Part shown: positions 6,206 to 46,973 of the stretch, in pieces
How positions within the stretch are numbered: position 1 is the first letter of the stretch
How the letters are laid out: every line of letters starts with the position of its first letter
Source: a virus
Length of the DNA: 48,830 nucleotides
Reading direction: 5' to 3' (one strand)
IMG/VR virus record: IMGVR_UViG_3300034069_000920
Span: 1 to 48,830 of that record
Made by a program: the position numbers and the translations under genes
The notes under the pieces: model-generated
Databases searched by the model: none
What the model was told of the DNA's origin: nothing
The model's input: the letters and a program-made list of their open reading frames with translations, nothing else

Positions 6206-6214
6206 GAGAGCCTC

Positions 6215-6409: not shown

Positions 6410-6494
6410 TCGGTTTTGGGTCCTTCCCCACCCTTTTTGCATCGAGGGTAATTGCGCGCCCCGAGCCGTCTCTAGCTGAAAGGGGGCAAAAGTT

Positions 6495-11880: not shown

Positions 11881-11899
11881 CACCAACCGGAGAACACCG

Positions 11900-12526: not shown

Positions 12527-12564
12527 TCCCTGCCCCTCCCCTCTTCTGAACAGGAGACGTCATC

Positions 12565-12984
12565 GTGACCCTCACCCCGACCCCATATTACAATTCGCCG
12601 TTCCAGCCCGGTGTTACGCAGGACGCATTCCTGCCCGACCAGCTGATCGGCGGCGACCTCAAGATCGTCACCCATGCCGGGCGGACGCTGCTCGCAGGCC
12701 AGTATTACAAGCGCGGCACCGTGCTCGGCCGCATCACCGCCAGCGGCAAGTACACCACCGCGCTCAGCGCCGCGAGCGATGGGTCGCAAACGCCGGTCGC
12801 TATCCTGGTGGATGACGTCGACGCCACCCTCGCGGACGCGCTGGGCGGCATCTACGCCATGGGCGAGTTCAACGAGAACGCCGTCATCCTCGGCACCGGC
12901 ATCACGCTCGCCGCCGCCAAGGCCGCTCTTGAGGTCCAGAACATCTACCTCAAGGGCGCGCTGACCGCGTCCGACCCGAGCTGA
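12565..12984 (+). CDS. Head decoration protein (lambda gpD-like)
   Basis: 139 aa with a GTG start and a GGAG RBS. Contains DQLIGGDLKIVTHAGRTLLAGQYYKRGTVLGRIT...AILVDDVD...IYAMGEFNENAV, and lies directly upstream of the gpE-type capsid gene. Confidence 0.75.
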   Translation: MTLTPTPYYNSPFQPGVTQDAFLPDQLIGGDLKIVTHAGRTLLAGQYYKRGTVLGRITASGKYTTALSAASDGSQTPVAILVDDVDATLADALGGIYAMGEFNENAVILGTGITLAAAKAALEVQNIYLKGALTASDPS

Positions 12985-22931: not shown

Positions 22932-23468
22932 ATGGCCGATATTCAGACGGTCTGGAGCCCATCATTGGGCGTCGGAGACTGGTATTTCGCGGTCGCCAAG
23001 GATGGCGTCATCACCGACGAGAACGGTTTCGATATTCTCGACAGTCTTGACGCTCCGATTAACGATAGCCTGTTCGGGACCGCGAGCGACCTCACTGTCG
23101 GCAATGACCTCGGCACGGCGGTAATGATCAGCCTGTTCACCGACGCGACTGCCGGTGCTGACGATGTCATTCCTGACGGATCAGGCGATCCGCGCGGGTG
23201 GTGGGGCGACGAAGGCGAGGACCGACCCATCGGATCGAAGCTGTGGCTGCTCACACGATCAAAGCAGACGGCGACGGTTCTAGCACTCGCCAAGGCTTAC
23301 ATTGAGCAGGCGCTGCAGTGGCTCATTGATGATGGCGTCGCGACGTCAGTGGGCGTGGCGACCGAATGGAGCCGCCCCGGCTTTCTTGGCGGAATGGTCG
23401 AGATCTCCCGATCAAGCGGGCCGAGGGCTGCCGTACGATTCGATTGGGCGTGGAAGGAGCTGAACTGA
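22932..23468 (+). CDS. Baseplate protein, GP46 family (Mu gp46-like)
   Basis: Contains DIQTVWSP..GVGDW, LGTAVMISLFTD, DPRGWWGDE and GSKLWLLTRSKQT. Confidence 0.8.
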   Translation: MADIQTVWSPSLGVGDWYFAVAKDGVITDENGFDILDSLDAPINDSLFGTASDLTVGNDLGTAVMISLFTDATAGADDVIPDGSGDPRGWWGDEGEDRPIGSKLWLLTRSKQTATVLALAKAYIEQALQWLIDDGVATSVGVATEWSRPGFLGGMVEISRSSGPRAAVRFDWAWKELN

Positions 23469-24640
23469 TGCCATTTCCCCGCCCCACGCTGACCCAGTTG
23501 AAAGACCGTGTTGCAGCAGACATAGCGACGGGCCTGCAAGGCACCTCGGCGCTGTTGCGCTATTCAAACCTCGGCGTGCTCGGGAAGGTGTTCGCGAAGG
23601 CGGTCAACGGCCTATACGGCTATCTCGACTGGATCGCGTTACAGGCGAACCCGACCACCGCGACCGGCGAATATGCGATCGCCTGGGGCGCGTTGAAGGG
23701 GAAGTTCATCGAGCCAGCAGCGGCGGCTGGCGGTATCGTCACCTTCAACGGCAACAACGGCGTCACTATCCCGACCGGGACGCCGCTCGTGCGCAATAGC
23801 GACGGAGCGACCTTCACTACCGTCGCGGATGTGACGATCACAAATGGGAGCGCATCGGCGACAGTTATTGCGGGCACCGCAGGGGCGATTGGCAATAGCA
23901 CGCCAGGGACAAGCTTCTCGCTCGGGATCGGCATCGCTGGCGTCATCTCCAGTGTGGTCGCGATTACCGGATTGGGCGGTGGTGCAGACGTTGAGACAAT
24001 CGACGCGTTCAAGGCTCGATACCTGCAGGCTTATGCCGCTCCTGCGCAAGGCGGCGCCGAGCCAGATTACCTGCAATGGGCGGATGTCGTGCCTGGCGTC
24101 ACGCGTGTGTGGGTTCTCCGCCACGGCATGGGCCCGGGGACGGTCGTCGTCTATTTCATGATGGATATCGTGCGCGCCTCAAGCGGTGGGTTCCCGCAGG
24201 GGGTCGATGGAGTAGCAGCGCTGGAACCGCGCGACATCGCAGCCAGCGGCGATCAATTGCTGGTCGCAGATGCGATCTATCCGGTGCAGCCGGTCACGGC
24301 TCTGGTTTATGCGGCCAGCCCCGGCCGGAACGCGATAACACTGACGATAGCCGGTATTTCCGGCGCTACGTCGGCAACCAAAATGGCGATATCGGCGGCG
24401 GCGGCAGCAGCGATCGCAGCTTCGTCGAGCCCGGGCGGGGTGACCCTGTCGGATGGCTCGCCCGGTGGCGTCACGTATATGTCGGCGATCGAGCGGGCGA
24501 TCTCCGCAATTCCCGCCGCGGCCGGGTTCGTCATCACTGCAGTCGCATCGAGCGATGGGGCAGTGTCACCAGGCGCTGCGGGGAACGTCACCTCTAACAC
24601 CGGGTATCTCGCCACGCTCGACGCGGTCACATACATCTGA
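23468..24640 (+). CDS. Baseplate J-like protein (Mu gp47-like)
   Basis: The internal ATG (MPFPRPTLTQLKDRVAADI) overlaps the upstream stop by 1 nt. The J-like pattern continues with ...ATGEYAIAWGALKG...GIVTFNGNNGVTIPTGTPL. Confidence 0.8.
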   Translation: MPFPRPTLTQLKDRVAADIATGLQGTSALLRYSNLGVLGKVFAKAVNGLYGYLDWIALQANPTTATGEYAIAWGALKGKFIEPAAAAGGIVTFNGNNGVTIPTGTPLVRNSDGATFTTVADVTITNGSASATVIAGTAGAIGNSTPGTSFSLGIGIAGVISSVVAITGLGGGADVETIDAFKARYLQAYAAPAQGGAEPDYLQWADVVPGVTRVWVLRHGMGPGTVVVYFMMDIVRASSGGFPQGVDGVAALEPRDIAASGDQLLVADAIYPVQPVTALVYAASPGRNAITLTIAGISGATSATKMAISAAAAAAIAASSSPGGVTLSDGSPGGVTYMSAIERAISAIPAAAGFVITAVASSDGAVSPGAAGNVTSNTGYLATLDAVTYI

Positions 24641-25248
24641 TGGCTGCCCGCTACCGCGCAGCCGACTATCTCTCGGCATTGCGATCCCTACTGCCGCGTG
24701 GGCGGGTCTGGCCAGCAGATGCCGACAGCATGCAAGCCCAGGTCCTTGCGTGCATGGCACCTACTTTGGAGAGGGTCGACGCCGCCGCGATCGCGCTCAT
24801 CGCCGATACTTTCCCTGCATCGACGACAAACTTCATCGATGAATGGGACGCGGCACTTGGCCTGCCGGATCCCTGCCTCGGCGAGAACCCGACACTTGAG
24901 CAGAAGCGCGCGCAGATCGTTGCTCGGCTCATCGCGCCAGGCGGGCAATCGGCGCAGTTCTATATCGATTATGCCGCGGCCCTCGGTTTCGAAATCGCCA
25001 TCACCGCTTTCGCGCCATTCCGCGCGGGTCGGAGCCGAGCCGGTGATACTCTTGGCGGCGACGCGGCTCCCTTCACATGGTTGGTGACGATCCTGTCGGA
25101 CGCGAGCAGCGCGAAGAATGCCGCCTTTCGCGCCGGACAAGGTCATGCCGGTGACCCGCTTTCCTCGGCCGCAGCATCGCATTCCACCCTGCTTTGCGAG
25201 CTGAACCGCATTGCACCGGCGCACACCGTCCTGCTCTTCACTTACTGA
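24640..25248 (+). CDS. Tail protein, DUF2313 (Mu gp48-like)
   Basis: Contains YLSALRSLLPRGRVWPADADS...FIDEWDAALGLPDPC. Confidence 0.8.
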   Translation: MAARYRAADYLSALRSLLPRGRVWPADADSMQAQVLACMAPTLERVDAAAIALIADTFPASTTNFIDEWDAALGLPDPCLGENPTLEQKRAQIVARLIAPGGQSAQFYIDYAAALGFEIAITAFAPFRAGRSRAGDTLGGDAAPFTWLVTILSDASSAKNAAFRAGQGHAGDPLSSAAASHSTLLCELNRIAPAHTVLLFTY

Positions 25249-25261: not shown

Positions 25262-25825
25262 ATGCAGCGCATCGACGTCGGAACGGCTGTTGCCGTTCTG
25301 CCAACCCCGGCTGCCGCCGGAACGCCTGGGTTTTTCACGGAGGGCGATCCGGTTGGCGGCATCGCACCGACGATCGTGAGCGGCGACTGGCTGAACATGG
25401 TTCAGGAAGAGCTAATCGGCGTGGTCGTGAAGAGCGGACTCACGCCTTCTAAGACGAACCGCACTCAGTTGCTCACCTCAATAATCGCACTGATCGTTGG
25501 CGCCGACGGCAGCAACATTGGGTCGGAAGGTTCGATATCGTTGGCTGGCGGTCTGCTGGTCGCGAAATGGGGAACGGTCACGATCGCTCCTTCGCAAAGT
25601 GCCACTACGTCAGTTGCGCACCCATACCCTGTACCATTCCCGGCGGAGAGCTTCGGTGTACTCGGCACGCCGAAAGCCGCCACAGCAGCGGGCGGATGGA
25701 ACCCGATCACCTCGTTCGTGCCCCTTTCCGACAAAAATGGTTTCACGGTGGTGATCGATAGCACTGATCCTGGCCATTTCGTGCTCCAACCGGTGCCTTA
25801 TTTTTACATCGCGCTCGGCAGGTAA
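25262..25825 (+). CDS. Tail fibre protein (short; gp53-like C-terminal domain)
   Basis: Start at MQRIDVG. The N-terminal motif GTPGFFTEGDPVGGIAPTIVSGDWLNMVQEEL is common to phage tail fibres. The C-terminus reads ...PVPFPAESFGVLG...KNGFTVVI. Confidence 0.7.
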   Translation: MQRIDVGTAVAVLPTPAAAGTPGFFTEGDPVGGIAPTIVSGDWLNMVQEELIGVVVKSGLTPSKTNRTQLLTSIIALIVGADGSNIGSEGSISLAGGLLVAKWGTVTIAPSQSATTSVAHPYPVPFPAESFGVLGTPKAATAAGGWNPITSFVPLSDKNGFTVVIDSTDPGHFVLQPVPYFYIALGR

Positions 25826-25883: not shown

Positions 25884-27596
25884 ATGCCCAAGATTACTGA
25901 CTATCCTTTGGCTGACGTTCTCAAGGGGACAGAGGCTTTTCTTGCGGACCAGAATGGGACTGTTTCGGTCAATATCGCTGCACTCGCAGCGTACCTACTG
26001 AATCAATTCGGCGATCCGGCGAGCAACAACGCTCTTGCGGCGCTGACGCAGATTGTTGAGCAGAATGCCTCGAGCAACGTCATAGATTGCGGTCCATGGG
26101 ATCCTGATGCGCCGGTATTCGCGGATGCTCGATGGGGGGCAACGGCGTCGCGGCGCGTTTTGCCAAACGCAAACCGCGCTGACTTTGCTCCCGCGATGGT
26201 CCGCCCCGGAGAGGTTGTCGTCGACGAACGCGGCATCCCGTGGTTTGGCGATGCGAGCGGACGCCCCGGGGGCGTTTCGCACCGGGCGACCGACGACGGC
26301 AATACCTTCGACCGCGCCATGTTCGACCGGCTGCGAGATCAAGCCGTCAGCATCATGGATGCGTATCTGCCGACCGATCCAGACTTCACGGCGGCGGCGC
26401 GCCGCGTGCTGGCGACGGGCAAAAACCTATTCCTCCCGAGCCGCGTCGGCGGCTATCCGATTTCCGACGGGCTGGTCATGTCGTCGGACGGACAGCAGAT
26501 CATCAGCGATGGTGCGTATCACGGGTATTTCCGTGTCACGTCGAACTTCAACCTGAGCGCACCCGGCGTCATCACGATCCTGACGTCGGCCAATGAGCAT
26601 CAGTCCGGCCTCACCAATGTCGGCATCCTGTTCGAACAGCCGAACACCCCGACCAGCATGTCGCAGATCATCAAGTACCCGTGGGCGATCAACGCGCCTG
26701 GCGTAGCGCGTATGTCGTTCAACGGAGTGATCCGGATTGAGGATGCATGGAACGGCCTCAACTTCATCGGCAATGTGGGCGGCCTCGTCGCCGATGACTT
26801 CGAAATCTCCGCCTACAACCGCGCCTATATTTTCGACGGGGCGCTAGATTCGGTCCACATCACCACGCTGAAACTGTGGCCGTTCATCGCGTCGAACACG
26901 TCGCAGGCTTTCGCGCTCTACGCGCAGGCCCTTGGCGGCTACATCGGTCATGTCGATGGTCTCGACATCAAGACGATCGCACATTTCGCGCAACCGCTGG
27001 TCGTAGATACCACGACGAATGGTGGCGGCATTGGCACGATCGGCGCGTTGCAGATGGACGGTGCCGGCTCGAAGCTGACGTGGAACAACCACGGCTATCG
27101 GGTTGGAAACCTCTACACAACGGCCTCGACTGCCACGATTTCGACGATGGAAATCAACGGCGGCTTCCTGTCGGTGGCCGGGCTCTACCTTCAGGGTGCC
27201 TCGGACGTTGCTGGCGCCAGTGCGGCCCCGCTCATCCTCCTCAAAGGCGGCCAGTTCCAGGTTACCAAGCCGTTCATGTCCGGCATCGGGCCGGGACAGA
27301 CGGTGATCCAGCAGTCGGGCGGCATCCTCGATTGGGAAGGCGGCATCTTCAACACCGATCCAAACGCCTCCTACACGGTGCCGCTGATCCACATCACCGG
27401 CGGATTCGCGACGATCAGCAAGCCGCGCTTCCTGCCGACCAACGCCAGCGGAAACGTCGCGATCAAGGTCGAGACGGACAACTACCACGACATCGAGATC
27501 AACGTGCTGTCGGGCTGGGCACGCTCTGTTCCCGCGTCGCCGACGACCAGCACGTTCCGCTTCGGTTCAACACTTATCGGAGGGCCATCGCTTTGA
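25884..27596 (+). CDS. Tailspike-like protein 1 (beta-helix type; depolymerase candidate)
   Basis: 570 aa with an adaptor-like N-terminus (MPKITDYPLADVLKGTEAFLADQNGTVSV). Its central region is paralogous to 27593..29317 and 29943..31673. Confidence 0.6.
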   Translation: MPKITDYPLADVLKGTEAFLADQNGTVSVNIAALAAYLLNQFGDPASNNALAALTQIVEQNASSNVIDCGPWDPDAPVFADARWGATASRRVLPNANRADFAPAMVRPGEVVVDERGIPWFGDASGRPGGVSHRATDDGNTFDRAMFDRLRDQAVSIMDAYLPTDPDFTAAARRVLATGKNLFLPSRVGGYPISDGLVMSSDGQQIISDGAYHGYFRVTSNFNLSAPGVITILTSANEHQSGLTNVGILFEQPNTPTSMSQIIKYPWAINAPGVARMSFNGVIRIEDAWNGLNFIGNVGGLVADDFEISAYNRAYIFDGALDSVHITTLKLWPFIASNTSQAFALYAQALGGYIGHVDGLDIKTIAHFAQPLVVDTTTNGGGIGTIGALQMDGAGSKLTWNNHGYRVGNLYTTASTATISTMEINGGFLSVAGLYLQGASDVAGASAAPLILLKGGQFQVTKPFMSGIGPGQTVIQQSGGILDWEGGIFNTDPNASYTVPLIHITGGFATISKPRFLPTNASGNVAIKVETDNYHDIEINVLSGWARSVPASPTTSTFRFGSTLIGGPSL

Positions 27597-29317
27597 GCTC
27601 TGCCCAGCCCACCCGGCTTTTCGTTCCTCCCGCTCCGGCGGCGCTGATCGCCTCGCGTAAGCCTCAGCCGCGCGAGTTCGTCTTTGATGCAACCAATGAG
27701 GCAATGACCTTCGGCACGACGAAAGGCGCGGTCTGGCTGTCCACCCTGCCGTCAATCAAGAATTACCCAATCGTCCCGCACGATCCCAGCAACCTTGCAG
27801 ACATGGGGCCGGTCATCCAGGCGGCGCTCGATGATGGCGTGCGCGATTTCTCCGACGTCAATCTCTACATCGATTCCGCTGTCACGATCCCAAACAACGC
27901 CATTGTCACATGGTCGCCGCAAGGCGAGATCATTCCGAAGACGGAAGGTTTCATCAATCGACATGGCATCTGGGCGATCGGACCAAACGCCGCAGTCAAT
28001 TGGGGTCGCGACACGACGCTGATTTGCCCGAGCGTCATTCACAAAGATTTCATGATCCCGCCCGCCATTACCGGCGACGCGACAAAGGATGTGCCTGCAG
28101 CAGCGGCGCGGCTGGCCGCGCGTGTCGCGAATGGCACTGGGATGTTGCTCAACCGTCCGGATGTGCTGCTCGTCAACCCGTTCGTCGTCGGCTTCAACAC
28201 TGCGTACGTGATGAACGCCGAGCGCATTCGGCTTTCTTACCCTCGTGCGGACTGCATCAACGGCATTGAAGGATTCGGGATCGGCGACTGCTGTTATGTC
28301 GACCGCCTGCATTTCTGGCCATACTGGTTCTCCCATATCGACTCGATCCCGCCCGCTGGTGTGCTCGGTAGTTACCAAAAGGGGCTGTACTTCCACGACA
28401 AGGCGGACGGTGTTCAGATCGACGGTGGCCTGATCTATGGCATGGCAATCAGCGAGCATTACCGCGACGTGTACGGCCTGAAAGCCAAGGGCGTCTGGCT
28501 GGATGGAGATCCTACCATCGCTGCGGATCGCGGCACCATCGGCGTGCTGACCGAGGGCAACTGCCAGTTCCTCGACCTGTCGCATACGCACACCAACAGC
28601 CATGCCATCAGCCGCAAGTTCTACCACACCGGCGGCACGGTCATCTGGAGCGACAACACCTCGTCTGATGCTCAGGTCGCTGACACGCTGCTTGGCACTG
28701 GCCATTCTACGGGCAGTATCAGCGTCGAAAACGCAAAGGGTTCGGCGCTCATCACCCTGTCGGACGCACCTGGCATCCACGACGTCTATATCCGCAATGA
28801 AGGCGGTGCGCCGGTCACCGCTGGGGTCGTCGTCAATGCGAGCGCGGTCACGACTAAGACGCAGCTCAATCGCGTCAAGTTGCAGTATACCGATATCGGC
28901 TCCGGTTACGCCGACAATACCAGCATCCTGTCGTCCTACGTGTTGGCCGTGTCGAACGCGGATCAACAGGTGGCGGCGAACACCGCCACGCATCCAAACT
29001 TCGTGACGACAACCGACACGCTGGGAGAGTGGAACGGCACGACGTTCACGGCAGCGGAAGCCGGCGATTACTACTTCGATGTGGACCTCGCCTTCACGGC
29101 ATCGGCCAACACATCGGTGCTGCTGCAAGTGATGCGCTCTGGAACAGAATACCGCCGCGTACAGCAACAGGTTCTAGCGGGCGCCGGATCCGTCGCGCTT
29201 GGGCGAATCGTCCGAATGAGCGCCGGAGCTACGCTCACTGTGTTGCTGACAATGGGCGCATCGGGGTCGCTGACCAACGGCGTCTGCAAACTCAAGGTCG
29301 CCCGGCGCGGCGCTTGA
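27593..29317 (+). CDS. Tailspike-like protein 2 (beta-helix type, C1q/TNF-like C-terminal domain candidate)
   Basis: The TTG start at 27593 overlaps the upstream TGA and has a GGAGGG RBS 8 nt upstream; the first ATG is near 27704. Shared motifs include LHFWPYWFS. The C-terminus reads WNGTTFTAAEAGDYYFDVDL...LLQVMRSG...SAGATLTVLL. Confidence 0.55.
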   Translation: MSSAQPTRLFVPPAPAALIASRKPQPREFVFDATNEAMTFGTTKGAVWLSTLPSIKNYPIVPHDPSNLADMGPVIQAALDDGVRDFSDVNLYIDSAVTIPNNAIVTWSPQGEIIPKTEGFINRHGIWAIGPNAAVNWGRDTTLICPSVIHKDFMIPPAITGDATKDVPAAAARLAARVANGTGMLLNRPDVLLVNPFVVGFNTAYVMNAERIRLSYPRADCINGIEGFGIGDCCYVDRLHFWPYWFSHIDSIPPAGVLGSYQKGLYFHDKADGVQIDGGLIYGMAISEHYRDVYGLKAKGVWLDGDPTIAADRGTIGVLTEGNCQFLDLSHTHTNSHAISRKFYHTGGTVIWSDNTSSDAQVADTLLGTGHSTGSISVENAKGSALITLSDAPGIHDVYIRNEGGAPVTAGVVVNASAVTTKTQLNRVKLQYTDIGSGYADNTSILSSYVLAVSNADQQVAANTATHPNFVTTTDTLGEWNGTTFTAAEAGDYYFDVDLAFTASANTSVLLQVMRSGTEYRRVQQQVLAGAGSVALGRIVRMSAGATLTVLLTMGASGSLTNGVCKLKVARRGA

Positions 29318-29382
29318 ATCCGTGCCGCCATAGCCGAGCGGCGCTCCGTCACCCTTTGTAGATAACATCATCGCGAGGTATC

Positions 29383-29946
29383 ATGTCGCCTTTGATCCTG
29401 AGGGCATGCGCCCTTGCAATCTCCCTAATTTCCACGCCACTAGCAGCTCAGGTGGCGCCATCGATCCTGCCACCCTGCCGCAATAACAGCGGGTCGTACG
29501 TACCGTGCGGCGGCGCAGTTCTGGTCGACAAGACTGGTGTCGCGCTTGATGCCAATAATCCCCTACCGACCACGCCCGGCCCGCTCGCGGCGGCATCTTC
29601 GATTCCGCTGATCGGCACAGTCACCAGCACGGCCGTCACGCCCGCCTCAGGCGCGGCGACCTTCGCCGGGGGTACCGCGACGATCGGGCCGCTCACGCCA
29701 ACGCTCGGCCGCGATATTGCGCTGAAACTCTGGACATCGAACAGCGCGCCATTCTCCTGCCAGATGTTCGACAGCATCGACGGCGGCGTGACCAAGCTGC
29801 CGCTGTCGATCTTCGATACGCCGATCGGCGGCCCATACAACGGGCCCGTCAACAGCGTCATCACCTCCGAGAGTGTGAGCGGCACGACCGAGTACCTGGT
29901 GTGCACCGTATCCTCCGGCAATCTCAACTATTGGATGGGCCAATGA
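29383..29946 (+). CDS. Secreted protein with Cys-loop N-terminal module (paralogous N-terminus to 34072..34953)
   Basis: 187 aa with a GAGG RBS and the signal peptide MSPLILRACALAISLISTPLAAQ. This is followed by SILPPCRNNSGSYVPCGGAVLVDKTGVALDANNPLP. Confidence 0.6.
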   Translation: MSPLILRACALAISLISTPLAAQVAPSILPPCRNNSGSYVPCGGAVLVDKTGVALDANNPLPTTPGPLAAASSIPLIGTVTSTAVTPASGAATFAGGTATIGPLTPTLGRDIALKLWTSNSAPFSCQMFDSIDGGVTKLPLSIFDTPIGGPYNGPVNSVITSESVSGTTEYLVCTVSSGNLNYWMGQ

Positions 29947-31673
29947 TGCGCTTTCTTCTGGCGGTCCTGATGCTGCTGTTCGCCGCACCGGCGGCAGCGC
30001 AGACAGACCAGGCTGCACGTGGTCTGGCCTTGCAGGCATCGGCCAAAATCACCAATCTCAACACCGTCAACGTCGTCGACTATCGCCGTTTCTTTGATAG
30101 CGACTGGACTCCAGCATTCACGCGCGCACTCGCGACCGGCAAGAACGTCATCATGCCCGAGCTGGTCGGCGGCTATACGATCACAGACAAAATTACCATT
30201 GTCGGCGCAGGTCAGCGGATCATCGGCGCTGGACCGTACAAGAGCTATTTCCACGTCACCACTGCGTTCAATATGAGCGCGACCTCAGTCGTCTCGATCA
30301 ACACAGCGCGGGATAGTGCTGCTGGGCTCGAAAACGTCGGCATCGCATTTGACCAGCCTGTGTTCACTGCCCGCAGCAATGCGATCCAATACCCCTGGGC
30401 TATTGCCTTCACCGGCCAGTCGCGCGTCTATTTCGGTGGCATCGTTCGTATTACCGGCGCATGGAACGGCATCAACGCGGCTGGCGACAGTGGCGGCATT
30501 AGCGCAGACGAGTTGCAGATCGGTGCCCTCAACACCGGCATGGCGATCGATGGTGCCGCCGACTTCATTACAATCCGGCATTTGGGGTGCTGGCCGTATG
30601 GCTTTTCTGACGGCAACCGCCTCCAAGCATGGGGCGATGGCAGCACTACCTGCTTCACCGGCGGGCGCATCGACGGTCTCTCGATCCATTCCCTGACGAC
30701 GTTTCAGGGGCGCGTGGCCTTTGCCGCCGGTACCGATAGCAATGTCACCTTCGGCTCGATCGATAGCCTCTCACTTGATGGCAATTGGGCACGCCTTGAC
30801 GCCAGCGCAGGCTATGTCGCTATCGGCACCTGGTACAAGTCCAGCTCGGCCGCGGGCGATTACGCCATGAACCTAACGGGCGGCCAATGGCGGCTAGGCC
30901 AGTATCGCGCCTTCTATGGCACGGCTCAGACCCAGCCGGGCGTCCTCGTCGCAGGCGCGGCGGTGACGATCGCCTCCGGATTCACCGACAGTGGTTCGAC
31001 ATCCGCGCCGGCGTTCCGCATCACCAGCGGCAATCTCACGCTTGACCAGCCGGTCTTCAACTACGGCACAAACACCGCCCGCACCGCGCCATTCGTCGAC
31101 GTGGCAGGCGGCACGATCACCCTGCTCAATCCGCGCTTTCAGGCGATGGGCAGCGGCTCTGGCAATGGGATCGTGGTTGCCGCGAACAACGTCAACAGCA
31201 TCACCGCGAACCAGATGAACGGCTGGGGAGTTGCCCTGCCGACCGCGATCTCGAACGGCAGCTATGCTTTCGATACGGTGTTCACCGCGACCCCATCTGT
31301 CAGCTTCAGCACGCCAGGGGACAGCGCGTTCACCTATACGACAGCGCTGACGCAATATCGGATCCAGGGGAAGCTGATCTTCTTCCGAACCGCCCTCGCC
31401 TTTAACACCAACGCGTTCACAACGGCTGCGACCGGTTCTTTCCAAATCAGCACCGGCATCCCCTTTGCACCCACCTTCCCAGCCGCGCCGACGCTGCCGG
31501 ACATCAGCAACATCACGTTTTCGGGTTACCTGGCGCCCTACCTGCCCACCAGCAATCTCGCCGTGATCCGGAACACAGCGTCGGGCGCGGCGGAGGGCAA
31601 TTTGGGTACCGCCAACATCAAGGCATCATCCACCGGCGTGGTGACCAACCTCAACGGCACCTATGCCTTCTAA
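29943..31673 (+). CDS. Secreted beta-helix protein, signal-peptide-bearing paralogue of the tailspikes
   Basis: Start at MMRFLL with an ATGA overlap upstream. The signal peptide is MMRFLLAVLMLLFAAPAAAQ. LATGKNVIMPELVGGYTITD...YPWAIAF...GAWNGINAAGDSGG...LGCWPYGF aligns by eye with 25884..27596. Confidence 0.6.
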   Translation: MMRFLLAVLMLLFAAPAAAQTDQAARGLALQASAKITNLNTVNVVDYRRFFDSDWTPAFTRALATGKNVIMPELVGGYTITDKITIVGAGQRIIGAGPYKSYFHVTTAFNMSATSVVSINTARDSAAGLENVGIAFDQPVFTARSNAIQYPWAIAFTGQSRVYFGGIVRITGAWNGINAAGDSGGISADELQIGALNTGMAIDGAADFITIRHLGCWPYGFSDGNRLQAWGDGSTTCFTGGRIDGLSIHSLTTFQGRVAFAAGTDSNVTFGSIDSLSLDGNWARLDASAGYVAIGTWYKSSSAAGDYAMNLTGGQWRLGQYRAFYGTAQTQPGVLVAGAAVTIASGFTDSGSTSAPAFRITSGNLTLDQPVFNYGTNTARTAPFVDVAGGTITLLNPRFQAMGSGSGNGIVVAANNVNSITANQMNGWGVALPTAISNGSYAFDTVFTATPSVSFSTPGDSAFTYTTALTQYRIQGKLIFFRTALAFNTNAFTTAATGSFQISTGIPFAPTFPAAPTLPDISNITFSGYLAPYLPTSNLAVIRNTASGAAEGNLGTANIKASSTGVVTNLNGTYAF

Positions 31674-31733
31674 CTCTGCTCTTCGCGCACCCATGGGGCT
31701 GCGATCAGCCCCGGAAGGCAAAGGAGCTCGCCC

Positions 31734-32168
31734 ATGATTCTCCTCCGCCTCCGGCGCACCTTCCGCGAGCGTGCGCCGGAATGGGCGCTCGCGTTCATCC
31801 AGACCGGTTGGGGCGGTACGCTGCTCCTGCCTGGCGGATCGTTCGACCGACCGTTCTTCAAGCCGTTGGCGGTGATCGCGACCGCAGAGACATGGGGCTG
31901 GACAATGCTGCTGACCGGGCTCTCCCGCTTCACCGCGCTCTACATTAACGGCTCGATGCGCCAGACGCCGCACGCGCGCCAGGCGTGCAGCCTGATCGGA
32001 ATGGCCTTGTGGGCGCTGCTCACCTTCAGCGCGCTGTCGCTGGAATGGCGGACGCCTGCGGTCTTCAACTACGGTGGCCTCTTCATCCTCGAGGCGATCA
32101 TGTTTTCCTATGCCGGCCGGGATGCCGCGCGCACTGTCGCAAAGGGCGCGGCCAATGGAGTTCAGTAG
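31734..32168 (+). CDS. Polytopic membrane protein (holin/antiholin or exclusion candidate)
   Basis: 144 aa with an AAGGAG RBS and about 4 hydrophobic segments. It is the first gene of the lysis block. Confidence 0.55.
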   Translation: MILLRLRRTFRERAPEWALAFIQTGWGGTLLLPGGSFDRPFFKPLAVIATAETWGWTMLLTGLSRFTALYINGSMRQTPHARQACSLIGMALWALLTFSALSLEWRTPAVFNYGGLFILEAIMFSYAGRDAARTVAKGAANGVQ

Positions 32169-32475
32169 CCTACCCGTTTGGGCGCAGCAGGTCGGCGCAC
32201 TTCTTGTCACTCTCGGCACCGCGATCTCGCTGTATTGGGCCGAGCATCGCAAGCGGAAGGACGAGCCCAAGGTGACCTCTGGCGGCAGCGACCGCGAGGT
32301 GATCGCCGCAAGCTTCGTCGGCACGCGGCAGATGGATGATGCGATCGCCGTCCTGCGCCAGATCCACACCGCAGTCACGGAGATGAACGGTCATCTCGAG
32401 AAGGCAAACGAACGCGCTCACGAGGCCGACATGATCGCCGCGATCGCCGCGAAGATGCGGGAAGAGCGCCACTAA
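32155..32475 (+). CDS. Single-TM membrane protein (holin-like)
   Basis: Internal ATG (MEFSSLPVWAQQVGALLVTLGTAISLYW), followed by a charged coiled tail. It lies immediately upstream of the endolysin gene. Confidence 0.5.
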   Translation: MEFSSLPVWAQQVGALLVTLGTAISLYWAEHRKRKDEPKVTSGGSDREVIAASFVGTRQMDDAIAVLRQIHTAVTEMNGHLEKANERAHEADMIAAIAAKMREERH

Positions 32476-32497
32476 GGCCGCAACGAAAGGTACATAG

Positions 32498-33124
32498 ATG
32501 AAGCCGTTCACCGCGGACCTGCTCGCGCAGGTCTTCGCGCCGACCCCGCGCGCCACCTGCTCCCTGTACGCTGCACCGCTTGAGGCAGCATGCCAGCGCT
32601 ACGGGATCAACACCGTCGCGCGCCGGTCCGCGCTGCTCGGGCAGATGGGGATCGAGTGCTCCCGCCTCACCCGCATGTCGGAAAACATGAACTATCGCGA
32701 CCCACAGCGGCTCGACGATATGTTCTCGGCCGTGCGTGGCTTCGCCGATGCAAGCGCGCTCATCAAGGCCGGGCCGCAGGCGATCGCCAACCGGGTTTAC
32801 GCGTATCGTCTTGGCAACGGTGACGAGGCGAGCGGCGACGGCTGGCGGCATCGCGGCGCGGGCGGGATCGGTTGCACCGGCAAGACCAATCAAGCCGCAT
32901 TCGGCGCCGCGATCGGCATGCCCCTCGCCAAGGTGCCGGCCTACCTGCTCACCCCTGAGGGCGCGATGCTGGTCACGGGCTGGTTCTGGGACACGCATCA
33001 CCTCAACCCGCTGGCGGATGCCGGCGACATCGACGCGATCACCCGCGTGGTCAACGGCCCGGCGATGACGGCTGCCGATGAGCGACGCGCACTGACCATC
33101 AAAGCAGGAAAGGCATACGCATGA
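32498..33124 (+). CDS. Endolysin, glycoside hydrolase family 19
   Basis: GQMGIECSRLTRMSENMNY (two catalytic-type Glu), IANRVYAYRLGNGDEASGDGWRHRGAG, TGWFWD and ITRVVNGP fit GH19 phage endolysins. Confidence 0.85.
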   Translation: MKPFTADLLAQVFAPTPRATCSLYAAPLEAACQRYGINTVARRSALLGQMGIECSRLTRMSENMNYRDPQRLDDMFSAVRGFADASALIKAGPQAIANRVYAYRLGNGDEASGDGWRHRGAGGIGCTGKTNQAAFGAAIGMPLAKVPAYLLTPEGAMLVTGWFWDTHHLNPLADAGDIDAITRVVNGPAMTAADERRALTIKAGKAYA

Positions 33125-33507
33125 CCTTCTGGACCTTTCTCGACCGGACCCTGAACCGCCTGCCCGGCTGGCCGAGCGAGCGCCAATGGGTGACGATCTG
33201 GCTGGGCGCGCTGATCGTGATCCTGTTGCTCATGGCGCGCGCGAATCCTGACTTGTGGAACGTCGAGGTGTTCAAGGTGATCGCGCAGGCGGTCGTGCTG
33301 ACCGGCTTCCTCAACATGGTGCTGGCGTTCCACTTCGCGGCCAACAAGGGCGACGAGGACAAGACGGCCAACACGGGGAAGGCGTTCGAGGCGATCACCG
33401 CAGCCGCCAATGCCGCGGCACCGGGCGAGGTCGCAAGCAAGGCGGCTGACCAAGTGGCCGATGCTGCGGCCGACAAAGCCAGCCAGATCAAGGGCGATGC
33501 GGCATGA
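33121..33507 (+). CDS. Two-TM membrane protein (holin candidate)
   Basis: 128 aa with an ATGA overlap with the endolysin. It has two hydrophobic helices and an Ala/Asp/Lys-rich tail. Confidence 0.55.
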   Translation: MTFWTFLDRTLNRLPGWPSERQWVTIWLGALIVILLLMARANPDLWNVEVFKVIAQAVVLTGFLNMVLAFHFAANKGDEDKTANTGKAFEAITAAANAAAPGEVASKAADQVADAAADKASQIKGDAA

Positions 33508-33863
33508 GCCTCATCCCCACCCCCGTCGCCGCCTTCGTCGAGGCGTACAAGCCGATCCTGATCGGCATAGGCATCGCCCTGCTCATCGCCGTGCTGCTCG
33601 CTCTCGCCTACTGCTCGGGCGGCGCCGGCGTGCAGCACGCGGACGATCAGGAGACGATCCAGCTACAGACCCACGTCATCGCCGCCGACGGCAACGCCGC
33701 AGACGCGCGCGTTGCGGACACGACCCATATCCAGAACCAGCAGCGGGAGATCGAAGATGCTGTCCAGAACACCTCGAGCATTGATGATGCTCGCCGCGCT
33801 CGCGGGTGCGTCATCCTGCGCCAGCAAGGTCGTGGTGCAGCCGCTACTGCCGCCGGTTGCTGA
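33504..33863 (+). CDS. i-spanin (Rz-like)
   Basis: 119 aa with an N-terminal TM (ILIGIGIALLIAVLLALAY) and a periplasmic coiled region. The o-spanin start is embedded in its 3' third. Confidence 0.6.
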   Translation: MSLIPTPVAAFVEAYKPILIGIGIALLIAVLLALAYCSGGAGVQHADDQETIQLQTHVIAADGNAADARVADTTHIQNQQREIEDAVQNTSSIDDARRARGCVILRQQGRGAAATAAGC

Positions 33864-34056
33864 CCTCCGTCAGATCGCCGAGCCGGCGTATCCGATCGAG
33901 GCGCTGCAACCCGGTGATGCCGGCGCGAAAGCCGAGGCGGCATGGCACGACAAGGTACTGACCTGGGGTCGTACGGGCTGGGCGCAGAACCGACGCGTGT
34001 GTCAGTGGGCCATCGACATGAAGCTCGCGGTGCCGGCCGGGTACTGCAACCCGTAG
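33757..34056 (+). CDS. o-spanin (Rz1-like lipoprotein), overlapping the i-spanin in another frame
   Basis: ATG 33757 has a GGGAGA RBS. The lipoprotein-type signal MLSRTPRALMMLAALAGASSC is followed by a Pro-rich mature part. The gene overlaps 33504..33863 by 107 nt. Confidence 0.6.
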   Translation: MLSRTPRALMMLAALAGASSCASKVVVQPLLPPVADLRQIAEPAYPIEALQPGDAGAKAEAAWHDKVLTWGRTGWAQNRRVCQWAIDMKLAVPAGYCNP

Positions 34057-34071: not shown

Positions 34072-34953
34072 ATGAAGAACCTGCTCCGCATCGCAGGCGC
34101 GGCCACACTCGCCCTGCTCGCCTCCCCAGCCTCGCCGCAGAGCTTCATTCCGAACTGCCGCAACGCCGGCGGCTCATATATTCCGTGCGATCCGGTGGTG
34201 CTGGTCGATAAGACCGGCACGATCATCGACAGCACGAACCCGTTGCCCGTCTCCGGGGGAGGTGGCGGCGCTACCACGATCGCCAACGGCGCTGACACCG
34301 CACAGGGCAGCACAGGAGATGCAGCCTACAGCGACGCGGCAGGAATTGCCTCGGGCACAGTGATCGCTCTCCTGAAAGGAATGTACGCCAGCCAGCGCGT
34401 TATGGGAATGTCGGCAGTGGGCGCAGCGCCCAGCGGTTATCCGATGTTCGTTGCCGGGACGGATGGAGGCGTCATCCGCGCGCTGCGACTGGACGGTAAC
34501 GGTCGCCTGCAGGGGACCTGGTATACATCCGGCGGGCAGGAGATCAGCTACCGCAACGATAACACGAACAACGTGGCACCGACGAGTGCCAACACGATGC
34601 CGGCATTCATTTCTCGACAGACGGTCTTTGACGGCAGCCGATGGCAGTTCGCAGCCGGCGACATCTACGGCGCCTGGTCTCACGCGCCTCAGTCGACACC
34701 CGCCCCGAGCGGCGGCACAATTGCGGCTAGCGGTGGCACCGCAGCCCTTGTTTTCACCAACATCACAGACGGCGAGGTGATGAACCCTTCGACAGCCGTG
34801 CTGTGGGCGTCATGGGGTACACCGGCGGTCAACGGTGCTGGCAGCTTCGCCATCCAGCCCAACGGATCGTATCGGCCGCCCAGCCGTGTCGCGGGGACCC
34901 TGACTCTGCTCTCGACCGCTACCAACCAGACTTACACCTTCAACAAGTTCTGA
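34072..34953 (+). CDS. Secreted protein with Cys-loop N-terminal module (paralogous N-terminus to 29383..29946)
   Basis: 293 aa with the signal peptide MKNLLRIAGAATLALLASPASPQ. This is followed by SFIPNCRNAGGSYIPCDPVVLVDKTGTIIDSTNPLP, a G5 linker and a beta-rich C-terminal domain. Confidence 0.6.
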   Translation: MKNLLRIAGAATLALLASPASPQSFIPNCRNAGGSYIPCDPVVLVDKTGTIIDSTNPLPVSGGGGGATTIANGADTAQGSTGDAAYSDAAGIASGTVIALLKGMYASQRVMGMSAVGAAPSGYPMFVAGTDGGVIRALRLDGNGRLQGTWYTSGGQEISYRNDNTNNVAPTSANTMPAFISRQTVFDGSRWQFAAGDIYGAWSHAPQSTPAPSGGTIAASGGTAALVFTNITDGEVMNPSTAVLWASWGTPAVNGAGSFAIQPNGSYRPPSRVAGTLTLLSTATNQTYTFNKF

Positions 34954-34967: not shown

Positions 34968-35528
34968 ATGAAAATGGCGCTTCTGGCGATCGGCTTGGTA
35001 ATCGCCTCCCCTTGTGCCGCGCAGCTCATCAATCCCGGCGCGAACCCGGCAGATGTCGCGCAGGCGCAGGCGCTGGCGCAGGCCGCCCAAGCCGCAGCGG
35101 CGACGGCAGCAGCCAATGCCTGCGCACCAGCATCCAGCGTACCACCGATCGAGCAGCCGGTCGGCACAGCGGGATCAGCCCAGACCTGTCGCCGATCGGA
35201 CGCCGTTCAGACCCGCATCACCCGCGTCACGATGACGACCTCGGTCGCCGGCGGGCTCGTCTCAGGATCGTGGTCAACACCCCTGCCTGCCGCGCCCGCG
35301 GTGATCTTCGAGGCAGTCAACGCGACAGCTGCTCAGCCAATCTTCTGCAACCTGACTGCCACGCCGACGACCACTACCTTCGCCGGCAAGTGCTGGATCC
35401 AGAACCCGCCGGTGGTGACGCTGTCGGGACTTACCAACGCGGGCACCACTGGTCTGACGCTGCCTGTCACGACGACGGTCCCGGTCGGCACGCAGGTCTT
35501 CGCCTTCGCGATTCCGACCACGCAGTAG
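34968..35528 (+). CDS. Secreted Ala/Thr-rich protein
   Basis: Internal ATG (MKMALLAIGLVIASPCAAQ) of ORF 34803..35528. It is the last gene before the late terminator. Confidence 0.55.
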   Translation: MKMALLAIGLVIASPCAAQLINPGANPADVAQAQALAQAAQAAAATAAANACAPASSVPPIEQPVGTAGSAQTCRRSDAVQTRITRVTMTTSVAGGLVSGSWSTPLPAAPAVIFEAVNATAAQPIFCNLTATPTTTTFAGKCWIQNPPVVTLSGLTNAGTTGLTLPVTTTVPVGTQVFAFAIPTTQ

Positions 35529-35558: not shown

Positions 35559-35592
35559 AGAGCGCTCGAGCTTCGGCTCGGGCGCTCTTTTT
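35559..35592 (+). terminator. Rho-independent terminator ending the long rightward (late) transcription unit
   Basis: AGAGCGCTCGAGC (35559-71), TTCG loop and GCTCGGGCGCTCT (35576-88) form a 13-bp stem with one G-T wobble, followed by TTTT. Confidence 0.8.
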
Positions 35593-35979: not shown

Positions 35980-36453
35980 TTATTCCTTGGCTGGGGCGGC
36001 GAGCATGGGCAACATCGGGGGCATGGAACCGATCCGATATGCCTCTGCGATCTGCGGCCGCATCCACTCGCTGACGGTTCGTTTATCGGGCAAGACGATG
36101 TTCGCCATGAACTCGTCTTCGAACACACTAATGCCGCTCTCGACGGCTTCCAACTTCGCCTTGATGACGAGAGCCAGTGCACGCCAGCGCTGCCGCGATG
36201 CCTGCTCCCATTCCTTCTTAGCCGCCTCGGGAGCGCGGATGCCCCGGCTGTGATGGGTGAACTTCCGATCGTTGCGATCAGGCAGCGGAAGGATGAAACG
36301 GATGTGCCGGCCATCCATGCGGAAACCGATCACGGCAGCATCGTCCTGCCAGCCGTAGAGGAACTGGTCGGCGCCATACCGCTCCAGTGTCCGTTCTATC
36401 TCGTCGCGTGACTTTGAGGTGCTGACCTCCGTGCTGGCTGCGTACCGGGTCAT
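35980..36453 (-). CDS. Conserved hypothetical phage protein
   Basis: 157 aa and the last gene of the minus-strand array. Contains the conserved-looking RQRWRALALVIKAKLEAVESGISVFEDEFMANIVLP. Confidence 0.6.
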   Translation of the reverse strand: MTRYAASTEVSTSKSRDEIERTLERYGADQFLYGWQDDAAVIGFRMDGRHIRFILPLPDRNDRKFTHHSRGIRAPEAAKKEWEQASRQRWRALALVIKAKLEAVESGISVFEDEFMANIVLPDKRTVSEWMRPQIAEAYRIGSMPPMLPMLAAPAKE

Positions 36454-37181
36454 GCCCCCTCCCCCGCATCGGTTGCCGGGGCGGCGGGGAGTGGTTCGTC
36501 ATCCATCGCCGTCAGTTCGGCCAACGCTTTGCGGCGAGGCGTGTCAAACAGCTCTTCCCGCGCCCCATGCTGGCGGGCGAGGGCTTCAAGAGCGGACAGC
36601 ATCCGAGCGCTGGCGTCCACCATGCCGTTCGAGTGCGCTTTGTCCTGCTTCCCGACTTCCGAAGCATCACGAACGATTTTGGAAACGGCTTCCCGCAACG
36701 CCTCCACCACCCCCGGTGCGGCCTCTGCCTGCGCGGGCTCGTCGCGCTTCAACAGCATCTGTAGCCGCAGCGCCATTTCGAGCAGCGTGCCGATGTGCCA
36801 GCGCCACACCAGCGCGGTTTGGTCTGGCACATGCGGTTGCTGTTTTACGTAGGCTTCACGCACCGCCAGCCGCGACGCCTCGTAGCGATCGGTCGGCCTT
36901 TCCGTCTTGAGCGGATCAGGGCCAATGTCAGGCCATTCGTGCGGCGCGGCCTCTACCTGCTTGAGCGCGGTTACGATGGCGGGGCGGGTGTTCCAGGCTC
37001 GGATAGCCCAAGCTTCGCTCGCGATATCCCAGCTAGGCGTCTGATTGGCGGGGCATTTCTTGCACTGGACTCCAACGGTATTGCGGCCAGCATCAAGGGA
37101 TATTTCAGCCTCCCCGCCACAGAACGGACAGGGTGCCAGCGCCTCAATCTGCGCCGTGATCGTGGGGGTGGGATCAGTCAT
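36450..37181 (-). CDS. Lar-family (restriction alleviation) zinc-ribbon domain fused to a C-terminal domain of about 175 aa with unknown function
   Basis: The N-terminus LAPCPFCGGEAEISLDAGRNTVGVQCKKCPANQ...AIRAWNTRPA matches the Lar-family pattern CPFCGG...C..C...AWN.R. Total length is 243 aa. Confidence 0.65.
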   Translation of the reverse strand: MTDPTPTITAQIEALAPCPFCGGEAEISLDAGRNTVGVQCKKCPANQTPSWDIASEAWAIRAWNTRPAIVTALKQVEAAPHEWPDIGPDPLKTERPTDRYEASRLAVREAYVKQQPHVPDQTALVWRWHIGTLLEMALRLQMLLKRDEPAQAEAAPGVVEALREAVSKIVRDASEVGKQDKAHSNGMVDASARMLSALEALARQHGAREELFDTPRRKALAELTAMDDEPLPAAPATDAGEGA

Positions 37182-39925: not shown

Positions 39926-40495
39926 TCACTTTTTCGCTGCGGCGGCGTTGTCGTCCGACATGTTCTCCGACACGCTTTCCGACAAACTTGGTTTGTTCGC
40001 GGTCTGTTTTTTAGGAGAAATGCGGCGCGCGATCGGACGATTCGCGGGTGATCCAGACGCCTGATTTTTAGCCATGGTGCGCGCCATCACTGTAGGATCC
40101 TCGCCGAACCGTTGCTCGCGGACATAAGCGTGTATGTTGGGGTACCGACTGGCGCCCGGCATCGCCCAGAAACGCTCTGGCACGTCGCGACGCAGGTTCG
40201 ACCACTCGAAATCATACCAGCCGGCGTATCGCTCGCGGTCCTCGTATCGGAAGCCTGTGCGCGCCAGGACCAGCGGAAAGCCCGTGCCGTCCCAAGGGAG
40301 TATACTCTCGACCAGCATGGAGATTGAGCACGGCGCGAGCGGCTTATCCCACATGTGCCAGACAATGCTGCTGACAAACTCGCCTTCGACCACGAATGGT
40401 AGGCGGCCTATTGAGAATGCCGGCGCGGCGGCGGCACCGACCAGCGCGGCGATCGATCCGAGAAATGCCCGGCGGGAAAGTGCAACTTCTGTCAT
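39926..40495 (-). CDS. Tat-signal exported protein (cargo gene next to attP)
   Basis: The internal ATG is coupled by ATGA to the DUF4031 stop. MTEVALSRRAFLGSIAALVGAAAAPAFS is a twin-arginine signal (SRRxFLG). The C-terminal tail is Lys/Ser-rich. Confidence 0.55.
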   Translation of the reverse strand: MTEVALSRRAFLGSIAALVGAAAAPAFSIGRLPFVVEGEFVSSIVWHMWDKPLAPCSISMLVESILPWDGTGFPLVLARTGFRYEDRERYAGWYDFEWSNLRRDVPERFWAMPGASRYPNIHAYVREQRFGEDPTVMARTMAKNQASGSPANRPIARRISPKKQTANKPSLSESVSENMSDDNAAAAKK

Positions 40496-40878
40496 GCCGC
40501 CTGATCCGGCTGAGGATAGCCCTGATCGGCCAGCCATTGCGGCACGTGAGCGGCGGGCGCGAATCCTTTTGAAACATCCGCGAGCGGGCGGATAAGGCGC
40601 AAGGGGTCCACCTTCCCCTCAATCACGGCGGCCATCGCGACCATGCAATATTTGTCGCATTCGACTGCCCCGAACGAGACGGCAAGCGCCCGCCTACTCT
40701 TCGCTATGTCGTAATGCGGCCAAGAAACCTTCCGCATCGTGGCCGGGTTCTGAAACCACTTCCGAGCGACTCCGATGCGATCGGCCATCGCGTGCAACTC
40801 GTCGAGGTTCGGCGAAAACATGTGGCACATGATCATGCGGCCATATCCGTGCGTAGCGTTGTCGACATACACGCTCAT
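40492..40878 (-). CDS. DUF4031 family protein
   Basis: MSVYVDNATHGYGRMIMCHMFSPNLDELHAMADRIGVARKWFQ...HYDIAKSRRALAVSFGAVE matches the DUF4031 pattern. Confidence 0.75.
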   Translation of the reverse strand: MSVYVDNATHGYGRMIMCHMFSPNLDELHAMADRIGVARKWFQNPATMRKVSWPHYDIAKSRRALAVSFGAVECDKYCMVAMAAVIEGKVDPLRLIRPLADVSKGFAPAAHVPQWLADQGYPQPDQAA

Positions 40879-42167: not shown

Positions 42168-42406
42168 CAGTCGAACCACTGGCCGGTATCGGTGGCGGCG
42201 CTGCTCTCGAACATCGCGGCCATGGCGGCGTCGAGATCCACGCGCCGCGCGATCGCCGCGCCGTTCCGCCCACGAGGAACGAATCGCACCGCGCCGCGGT
42301 CGCGCCACTCTTTCATCTGCGCCGCGCTCACGCGCGTATAGTCGAGCGCCTCCGCCTCGGTGAGGGCGGCCGGCCAGTCTGGCAGGCTTGCGAGCGCGGT
42401 CATCAC
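42167..42406 (-). CDS. Excisionase/AlpA-like HTH protein
   Basis: 79 aa, directly upstream of int. LTEAEALDYTRVSAAQMKEWRDRGAVRFVP is an MerR/AlpA-type HTH pattern. Confidence 0.55.
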   Translation of the reverse strand: MMTALASLPDWPAALTEAEALDYTRVSAAQMKEWRDRGAVRFVPRGRNGAAIARRVDLDAAMAAMFESSAATDTGQWFD

Positions 42407-46885: not shown

Positions 46886-46903
46886 AATCGGGCTGATACC
46901 CCG

Positions 46904-46968: not shown

Positions 46969-46973
46969 GTGGC

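Follow-up and report, generated by a model that had tools for sequence, protein, structure and literature searches.

This report concerns a single gene, here called C, which lies in the late region of a phage genome deposited as IMG/VR virus record IMGVR_UViG_3300034069_000920; the window, meaning the whole stretch of DNA analysed, comprises all 48,830 nucleotides of that record (Table 1). Reading rightwards through the region of interest, the order is tail fibre, A, B, a 65-nt gap, D, C, a 60-nt gap, the lysis cassette, E, F and finally a terminator. An earlier reading made from the DNA letters alone (the original prediction) had described the products of A, B and C as three paralogous beta-helix spike proteins, the third of which carries a Sec signal peptide where the others have an N-terminus for virion attachment; the coordinates of these three genes and the peptide strings quoted from them all proved correct.

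C belongs to a large protein family of tailspike type with a pectate-lyase-3-like fold. The AlphaFold2 model of C is a right-handed beta-helix in which residues ~40–440 mostly have values of the predicted local distance difference test (pLDDT) above 85, and when this model is compared with the PDB using Foldseek the best match is the Det7 tailspike (E 8e-6), with further matches to Geobacillus virus E2 ORF18 and the CBA120 tailspikes, while the exported bacterial beta-helix enzymes AlgE4 and RbmB (E ~5e-3) rank after the tailspikes. In BFVD the model matches a pectin-lyase-like protein of Bcep22 (E 7e-8), and the best viral models are tailspikes and pectate-lyase-like proteins. A confident model together with these tailspike matches bears out the beta-helix fold that had been proposed for C. 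At the level of sequence, a profile built from C together with related proteins was run against 1.84 billion cluster representatives and matched 4337 of them, the matches at E <= 1e-30 numbering 701, and in most proteins of the family an N-terminal extension of variable length precedes the helix, which is a modular layout of tailspike type. None of A, B and C matches PF12708 (Pectate_lyase_3) at E <= 0.1; the relatives P0004, P0005 and P0007 carry precomputed matches to it. The closest relative of C that has no signal peptide, P0009 (45% identity), is encoded directly after P22-type ejection-protein genes and shows a faint match to Head_binding (P22), and on the strength of this context and this match it can be taken as a genuine tailspike of a P22-like podovirus. 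The C-terminal part of C (residues 450–576) matches 85 representatives at E <= 1e-3 using phmmer, true tailspikes included, while a tblastn search with C of 50,697 phage records gave only two weak partial matches, both annotated as tail spike.

Residues conserved in C include Q138, R144, R161, R169, D207, D232, D244 and D279, and overall the protein keeps nine of the ten positions that are near-invariant and polar across the family, the assignment of catalytic residues for the family being a presumed one. At position 192 C has Gln, where 132 of 152 family members have Glu and 8 of the 152 have Gln; of its two orthologues, P0002 has Gln and P0003 Glu. The near-invariant polar residues are retained in signal-bearing members of the family, and since this is so we infer that glycan cleavage is the likely function of C.

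At its N-terminus the particle-binding module is, in C, replaced by a 19-residue signal peptide of Sec type. The sequence divides into MMR, FLLAVLMLLFA and APAAA, followed after the cleavage site by QTDQ, that is to say a positively charged n-region, a hydrophobic core of 11 residues and a c-region with Pro at −4 and Ala at −3 and −1. When signal peptides were scored using a home-made rule set, C scored highest among the plausible genes of the window. The same layout is kept in the orthologues P0002 (MIRIMLRALIAVLAFSAQPALA, then Q) and P0003 (MIRFLIALAALLFSAPAFS, then Q), at 57% identity, although the signal sequences themselves differ; these textbook n-, h- and c-regions and their retention in both orthologues confirm the signal-peptide-like character that had been noticed for this N-terminus. 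Only ~20 residues, forming a short linker of low model confidence, separate the cleavage site from the start of the helix at about residue 40, a stretch too short to hold an adaptor domain. Other types of signal were considered and rejected: a signal-arrest-release (SAR) anchor because the h-region is rich in Leu and Phe rather than in Gly and Ala and is followed by a canonical AXA site, and twin-arginine (Tat) and lipoprotein signals because the sequence has neither a twin arginine nor a lipobox Cys.

A further indication comes from cysteine. C has just two cysteines, Cys216 and Cys237, which lie 21 residues apart, corresponding to roughly one turn of the beta-helix. Among 153 family representatives, 16 have Cys at both of these columns, and all 16 have signal-like N-termini (13 of them are in the rule-based signal set, while P0061, P0089 and P0109 were missed by the rule and have hydrophobic, signal-like N-termini); the pair occurs in none of the 118 remaining representatives, which were not flagged as signal-bearing (Fisher p = 5e-8). 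Since the nearest signal-less relatives of C have F/V and G at the two positions, this association is not just a matter of inheritance within one clade, and a restriction of the pair to signal-bearing forms is as one would expect of proteins that fold in the periplasm. Given the signal, the pair of cysteines and the signal-bearing partner gene described below, there is little doubt in our minds that C is exported and is not a component of the virion. The proposal of the original prediction that export takes the place of virion attachment thus holds on indirect evidence, while the function of C and the timing of its expression have the standing of predictions.

The partner gene is D, immediately upstream, for which the heuristic cleavage site is ...STPLAA before QV. 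Because the stop codon of D overlaps the start of C (ATGATG), the two genes are probably translationally coupled. Gene E, beyond the lysis cassette, is a paralogue of D as regards an N-terminal motif of 36 residues (PxCRNxxGSYxPC..VLVDKTG..NPLP; 61% identity, E 2e-11). No terminator or sigma-70-like promoter was detected by scans, using an E. coli-type consensus, from the tail genes to the terminator at 35559, and this last (35559–35588) is the only convincing + strand terminator between positions 25000 and 36500. The short hairpin found between C and the first lysis gene could be a processing, pause or attenuation element. Taken as a whole, the gene order favours late, lysis-linked expression of C.

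Table 1. Positions of the features discussed; coordinates are those of the window unless a locus is named.
Feature	Coordinates	Strand	Remarks
Large terminase	7081-9108		
Baseplate_J	23468-24640		Mu-like baseplate
Gp48	24640-25248		Mu-like baseplate
Short tail-fibre gene	25262..25825	+	After the baseplate genes; Pfam Gp53-like_C, E 2.6e-5; PHROG tail-fibre families, E down to 3.5e-15
Gene A	25884-27596	+	570 aa; 154-aa non-hydrophobic N-terminal region, then beta-helix body (residues 155-570)
Gene B	27593-29317	+	574 aa; second tail-fibre or tailspike candidate
Gene D	29383..29946	+	187 aa; signal peptide, CX9C loop; stop overlaps start of C
Gene C	29943-31673	+	576 aa; identical to database call P0001
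Predicted Sec (signal peptidase I) signal peptide of C	29943..29999	+	Cleaved before Q20
Beta-helix body of C	30060..31277	+	About residues 40-445; from AlphaFold2, Foldseek and conservation
C-terminal domain of C	31302..31670	+	About residues 454-576; low model confidence
Hairpin GGGGCTG-cgat-CAGCCCC	31695..31712	+	7 bp, GC-rich, no T-run; between C and first lysis gene; not called by terminator scan
Lysis cassette	31734..34056	+	Membrane proteins at 31734-32168 and 33121-33507
Endolysin	32498-33124	+	In lysis cassette; PHROG 181, E 2.5e-57
i-spanin/o-spanin-like pair	33504-33863 and 33757-34056	+	Overlapping, in different frames; second is lipoprotein-like (…LAALAGASSC)
Gene E	34072-34953	+	Signal-peptide protein after lysis cassette
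Gene F	34968-35528	+	186 aa; signal peptide, Ala/Gln-rich mature N-terminus; last gene ahead of terminator
Intrinsic terminator	35559..35588	+	Strong; 13-bp stem, then T-run; ends rightward late unit
Integrase	40875-42308	opposite to late genes	
cI-like repressor	46439-46981	opposite to late genes	
Partner gene of C-like gene, locus L001	9549-10004		
Partner gene of C-like gene, locus L003	9534-10004		

The pairing of a small secreted protein with a C-like protein recurs elsewhere. At each of three other loci, L001, L002 and L003, a small signal-peptide gene overlaps a C-like gene by 4 bp, as D overlaps C, and its product, like D and E, starts with a signal peptide and then a CX8-9C loop; for small secreted proteins of this D/E type, searches of Pfam, PHROGs, NCBIfam and the phage records gave no homologue. 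The clade to which C belongs adjoins the lysis cassette in all three of the loci that are informative on this point (the window, L001 and L003). In L001 and L003 the cassette sits after the spanin genes, and the endolysin is of a different family (PF00959) from that of the window, suggesting that the D-C cassette moves between phages while staying beside the lysis genes. Scans for promoters and terminators round the cassette in these same three loci revealed nothing that isolates it, a result that is not decisive. As a separate observation on L001, which is a contig of Sphingomonas sp. 10B4, positions 1846–7209 encode a single product of 1787 aa with Pfam matches to both Terminase_3 and Beta_helix; this is either an odd fusion or an artefact of gene calling or assembly.

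Looking beyond the immediate clade, signal-like N-termini were found by the same rule set in 32 of the 153 best family representatives, or about a fifth. Where their genomic contexts are readable these signal-bearing genes are all in phages, except for one chromosomal pair from Acetobacteraceae: in L004, the member of the pair whose neighbours were read, the gene lies among genes for an ABC transporter, a LysR protein and a TonB receptor, and L005 is the counterpart locus. Among the phage contexts, of which there are at least seven, L015 has its signal-bearing gene between the terminase and portal genes, and L016 has one inside the structural module of a BPP-1-like podovirus. On L017, a contig of another BPP-1-like podovirus, four consecutive signal-bearing genes occupy positions 1084–5847 upstream of the portal gene, their products being a 116-aa protein, a 292-aa arabinofuranosidase-like protein (with RR in its N-terminus), a 567-aa Beta_helix protein and the 619-aa family member P0122; to judge by sequence, exported proteins active on glycans are encoded here as an entire cluster. 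In L025, from a myovirus with a Mu-like baseplate, a signal-bearing member (MMRTILLVMVLLLVAEPVLA, then Q) at 7740–9632 comes directly after a tail-fibre gene and has a strong AGGGGA ribosome-binding site, with a second signal-bearing gene 1.7 kb downstream at 11389–12672. It should be borne in mind that the pattern-based scans for such loci returned 2, 3 and 6 relatives in the genome, viral and metagenome collections respectively, so the phage-borne share is drawn from a small sample.

Of the two other proteins that had been grouped with C, only one is demonstrably related to it. A and C align over 418 aa at 32% identity (BLASTP, E 6e-62; A155–570 to C42–453), A matches the family profile at E 3e-183, and judged by these alignments the two are true homologues, from which the beta-helix fold can be taken over for A. 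The case of B is different. Its BLASTP comparisons with A and with C are non-significant (E 0.14–0.17), hhalign gives a probability of 0.9% against a 6-sequence profile of the family, a hidden Markov model (HMM) of 150 family sequences gives E 0.93, and hhalign against the 150-sequence alignment reaches 24% probability through a single motif of 23 columns, 'D..I..L.WPY', that pairs B225–247 with C200–222. With none of these comparisons significant, B was rejected as a remote homologue of A and C, so that of the supposed trio of paralogues the relationship of A to C survives and the membership of B does not. The AlphaFold2 model of B is unusable (mean pLDDT 37), and its C-terminus has a weak match to BclA_C (C1q-like) at E 0.002, below the Pfam cutoff. 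As to the gene itself, it starts with TTG, with GGAGGG 8 nt upstream, and an independent gene call (P0155) gives an identical product of 574 aa; in another phage (L019) a homologue of B, P0157, is encoded by the last tail gene ahead of the lysis cassette, which there follows directly, with no D-C pair between.

The relationship between A and C is not a close one. A ranks below the top 25 in the list of matches to C, and since some 25 other representatives of the family are nearer to C than A is, a recent duplication of A within this genome was rejected as the origin of C; the two are better seen as old members of one family. The family C-terminal domain, present in C and in the 85 representatives mentioned above, is missing from A, and in the N-terminal region of A just one segment of 50 residues matches another family member, P0019. 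A is presumed to be a virion tailspike. It keeps eight of the ten near-invariant polar positions, having Met in place of R144 and Gln in place of D232 (C numbering), and it may be that A is a glycan binder that does not cut, whereas nearly all of the conserved residues are present in the exported C. As an observation in its own right, at the positions where A has Met and Gln the usual residues are Arg and Asp, found in about 95% of 152 family members, and each of the two changes is unique within this sample. Other searches added little: the tblastn search of the 50,697 phage records found nothing for the N-terminal region of A or for B, D and E, sequence searches of the PDB found nothing for A, B and C, and searches of Pfam, PHROGs and NCBIfam gave no informative match for any of A to F.

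The genome that carries these genes is that of a temperate myovirus. The contig ends in an exact direct repeat of 141 bp (1–141 and 48690–48830), which indicates a circular, complete phage genome of ~48.7 kb, and its GC content is ~63%. Besides the terminase and the Mu-like baseplate genes, its structural genes specify a lambda-type portal, an S49 protease, an E-type major capsid protein, a tail sheath and a tape-measure/lysozyme protein. Sphingomonas sp. 10B4 is the only named source among the relatives of gene C, suggesting a sphingomonad as the host of the window phage, which is probably Sphingomonas; that this host has two membranes (i.e. is diderm) is indicated by the overlapping spanin-like pair with its lipoprotein (33504–34056).

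How, then, does C compare with systems already described? It has the same right-handed beta-helix body as P22 gp9, Det7 gp208, CBA120 TSP1-4 and the Klebsiella K2-2 TSP, virion tailspikes of the kind that supply its best Foldseek matches, and it has in common with virion tailspikes both the wider sequence family (via P0009) and the C-terminal domain. These proteins, however, possess a head- or baseplate-binding module, instead of which C has its Sec-type signal, together with a Cys pair that is missing from signal-less relatives. In the logic of its genomic position, though in that alone, C resembles Llp of T5 and Cor of phi80 and N15, exported proteins encoded next to receptor-binding genes, which neutralise the receptor and so protect the cell or lysogen and spare progeny from loss on debris. 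Llp and Cor act stoichiometrically, as small lipoproteins blocking FhuA, which is a protein receptor, whereas C has 576 aa, has no Cys at +1 (hence no lipobox), and presumably acts catalytically on glycan. There are also free phage depolymerases which, as is proposed for C, act outside the virion, clearing capsule or exopolysaccharide (EPS) round plaques; to our knowledge those described so far are cytoplasmic surplus or products of alternative starts that are released by lysis and not exported through Sec, in contrast to the export predicted for C.

The nearest parallels for export are bacterial. WceF of Pantoea stewartii (PDB 6TGF) is an exported, tailspike-like trimeric beta-helix of 736 aa that cleaves the exopolysaccharide of its own producer, its gene being chromosomal, in an EPS biosynthesis cluster, and its signal being of Tat type (PMC7949094); it is likened to C here by fold and description and not by sequence, and differs from it in that the gene for C is carried by a phage, with tail and lysis genes as its neighbours, and the signal of C is of Sec type. 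RbmB of Vibrio cholerae (PDB 9OZL), the product of a chromosomal biofilm-cluster gene, is a beta-helix polysaccharide-cleaving lyase of ~350 residues that has a Sec signal and has been shown to be periplasmic (PMC12993940), but its structural match to C is weak (E ~5e-3) and it has no tailspike C-terminal domain. Unlike both of these, C is not encoded in a host polysaccharide or biofilm cluster; its gene stands between those for the tail and those for lysis on a circular phage genome. A search of the literature, from which most subscription journals were out of scope and in which absence is not proof, found no account of a tailspike homologue that a phage encodes and that is exported through Sec. 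The remark in the original prediction that no characterised example was known to it can accordingly be kept for phages, where none was found, but not for bacteria, for which WceF and RbmB have been characterised. From sequence, C appears to combine the body of a phage tailspike with an export route of bacterial style, and to do so recurrently across phage types.

The interpretation we prefer, to which we would give an even chance, is that C is a virion-free, exported depolymerase derived from a tailspike, made late together with the lysis genes and directed against polysaccharide of the host. On such a scheme D and C would be transcribed with the late genes and translocated by Sec into the periplasm of a diderm host, where C would fold, probably forming a disulfide between Cys216 and Cys237 that spans two helix turns. 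It would then cut the surface polysaccharide of the host (capsule, sphingan-type EPS or similar), either in the periplasm while the polymer is in transit there, as has been shown for RbmB (PMC12993940), or, after release of the enzyme by lysis, in the surroundings of the cell. By destroying receptors on debris and on cells already infected, C would reduce the number of progeny lost there, and progeny would also not be trapped in the matrix. As a receptor-destroying enzyme C would follow the same logic as T5 Llp and Cor, but by enzymatic means.

There are a number of points that weigh against this interpretation. The rule set used to score signal peptides is crude and unvalidated, and is not SignalP, and for the whole of the C clade we infer activity, substrate and localisation from sequence. 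Gln at position 192 could mean that C is inactive or altered in its activity. Transport by Sec followed by folding of a trimeric beta-helix is plausible, but WceF uses Tat; the onward passage of C across the outer membrane is putative. The correlation between cysteines and signal is in part phylogenetic, and the signal-bearing members at L025 and L005 have no Cys pair. As regards timing, the E. coli-type consensus used in the promoter scan could miss an internal promoter active in lysogens, while the hairpin at 31695–31712 could be a regulatory boundary.

One alternative is that D and C are a moron expressed from the prophage, whose enzyme trims or removes the receptor polysaccharide of this and related phages and thereby protects the lysogen (lysogenic conversion or superinfection exclusion). 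The mobility of the cassette between unrelated phages is in keeping with this, as are its place in L001 and L003, where it follows the spanin genes and so closes the late region distally (the classic position for a moron), a gap of 230 nt upstream of it in L003, the passage straight from a B-like last tail gene to lysis genes in L019, and the presence of P0010, a close relative, beside an integrase. Nevertheless we think it unlikely, given that no isolating terminator was seen and, ahead of D in the window and its counterparts in L001 and L003, no sigma-70-like promoter either, that in the window gaps of 60–65 nt separate the cassette from the tail genes on one side and the lysis genes on the other, and that constant breakdown of the host's own EPS or capsule would be costly. 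It is quite improbable, since a late operon is normally silent in lysogens, that C is cargo of benefit to the host alone, a secreted glycanase that remodels the host's own biofilm or EPS or allows it to feed on foreign polysaccharide, and has no role in infection; WceF and RbmB do have roles of this sort, signal-bearing members occur also in the chromosomal context of L004, and in L017 a signal-bearing gene of arabinofuranosidase type stands beside beta-helix genes, but the nearest relatives of C are phage-borne and its clade is lysis-adjacent in 3 of 3 loci.

The two further alternatives concern the protein itself rather than its expression. If the change from Glu to Gln at position 192, seen in both C and P0002, abolished cutting, C might be an exported but non-catalytic glycan-binding protein, a lectin-like mask, which is an idea that overlaps with the other alternatives. 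Changes of E to Q do inactivate some tailspikes, for example HK620 E372Q, entries for which are among the Foldseek PDB matches of C. However, the orthologue P0003 keeps Glu, 8 of 152 members have Gln here, C is unchanged at the nine remaining conserved polar positions, and any catalytic role of Glu192 is putative; we therefore regard such a mask as very improbable. It is next to incredible that C is after all a third baseplate spike, its hydrophobic N-terminus being an uncleaved structural or assembly element, or its export being inefficient. One could cite in favour of this the C-terminal domain typical of true tailspikes that C retains, the position of the L025 gene directly after a tail-fibre gene, just where a spike gene would be expected, and the location of the genes at L015–L017 inside structural modules; but all three regions of a cleavable signal are present (with Pro at −4 and Ala at −3 and −1) and the helix begins almost at once with no adaptor, the upstream partner D is signal-bearing too, the specificity of the Cys pair for signal-bearing members points to an oxidising compartment, and tailed phages assemble in the cytoplasm.

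A wider proposal, which is possible but which we hold with some doubt, is that several unrelated types of phage (myoviruses with Mu-like baseplates, BPP-1-like podoviruses and Sphingomonas prophages) carry a recurrent and undescribed class of Sec-exported tailspike paralogues, often with small secreted partners and an export-specific disulfide, which would destroy receptors or clear matrix from the periplasmic side. Were this so, the class would be a counterpart among bacterial viruses of influenza neuraminidase, and possibly an extra lysis step for heavily encapsulated hosts. Phage depolymerases are normally seen as spikes of the virion or as cytoplasmic surplus released by lysis, whereas deliberate export would amount to an attack by the phage on the glycan coat of its host from inside, during infection. 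That would bear on how progeny escape from capsule or biofilm, on losses to debris and on changes in the surface of lysogens, and it would suggest that there is a pool of naturally soluble, secretion-competent depolymerases for which no truncation is needed before their use as enzymes or against biofilms. The predictions that such a class makes are directly testable, namely as to localisation, disulfide dependence, halo formation and adsorption to debris.

Some other genes of the window may be mentioned briefly. The genome encodes an N6/N4 DNA methylase (46–1200), a complete homologue of the DNA polymerase III beta-clamp (1875–3098) and, on the − strand, a Lar-like restriction-alleviation protein (36450–37181). 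Adjoining the integrase gene, and also on the − strand, is an open reading frame of 203 aa (39926–40537) that has no family match; from an internal start it would begin MTEVALSRRAFLGSIAALVGAAAAPA, a signal of the twin-arginine type, which makes it a candidate lysogenic-conversion gene.

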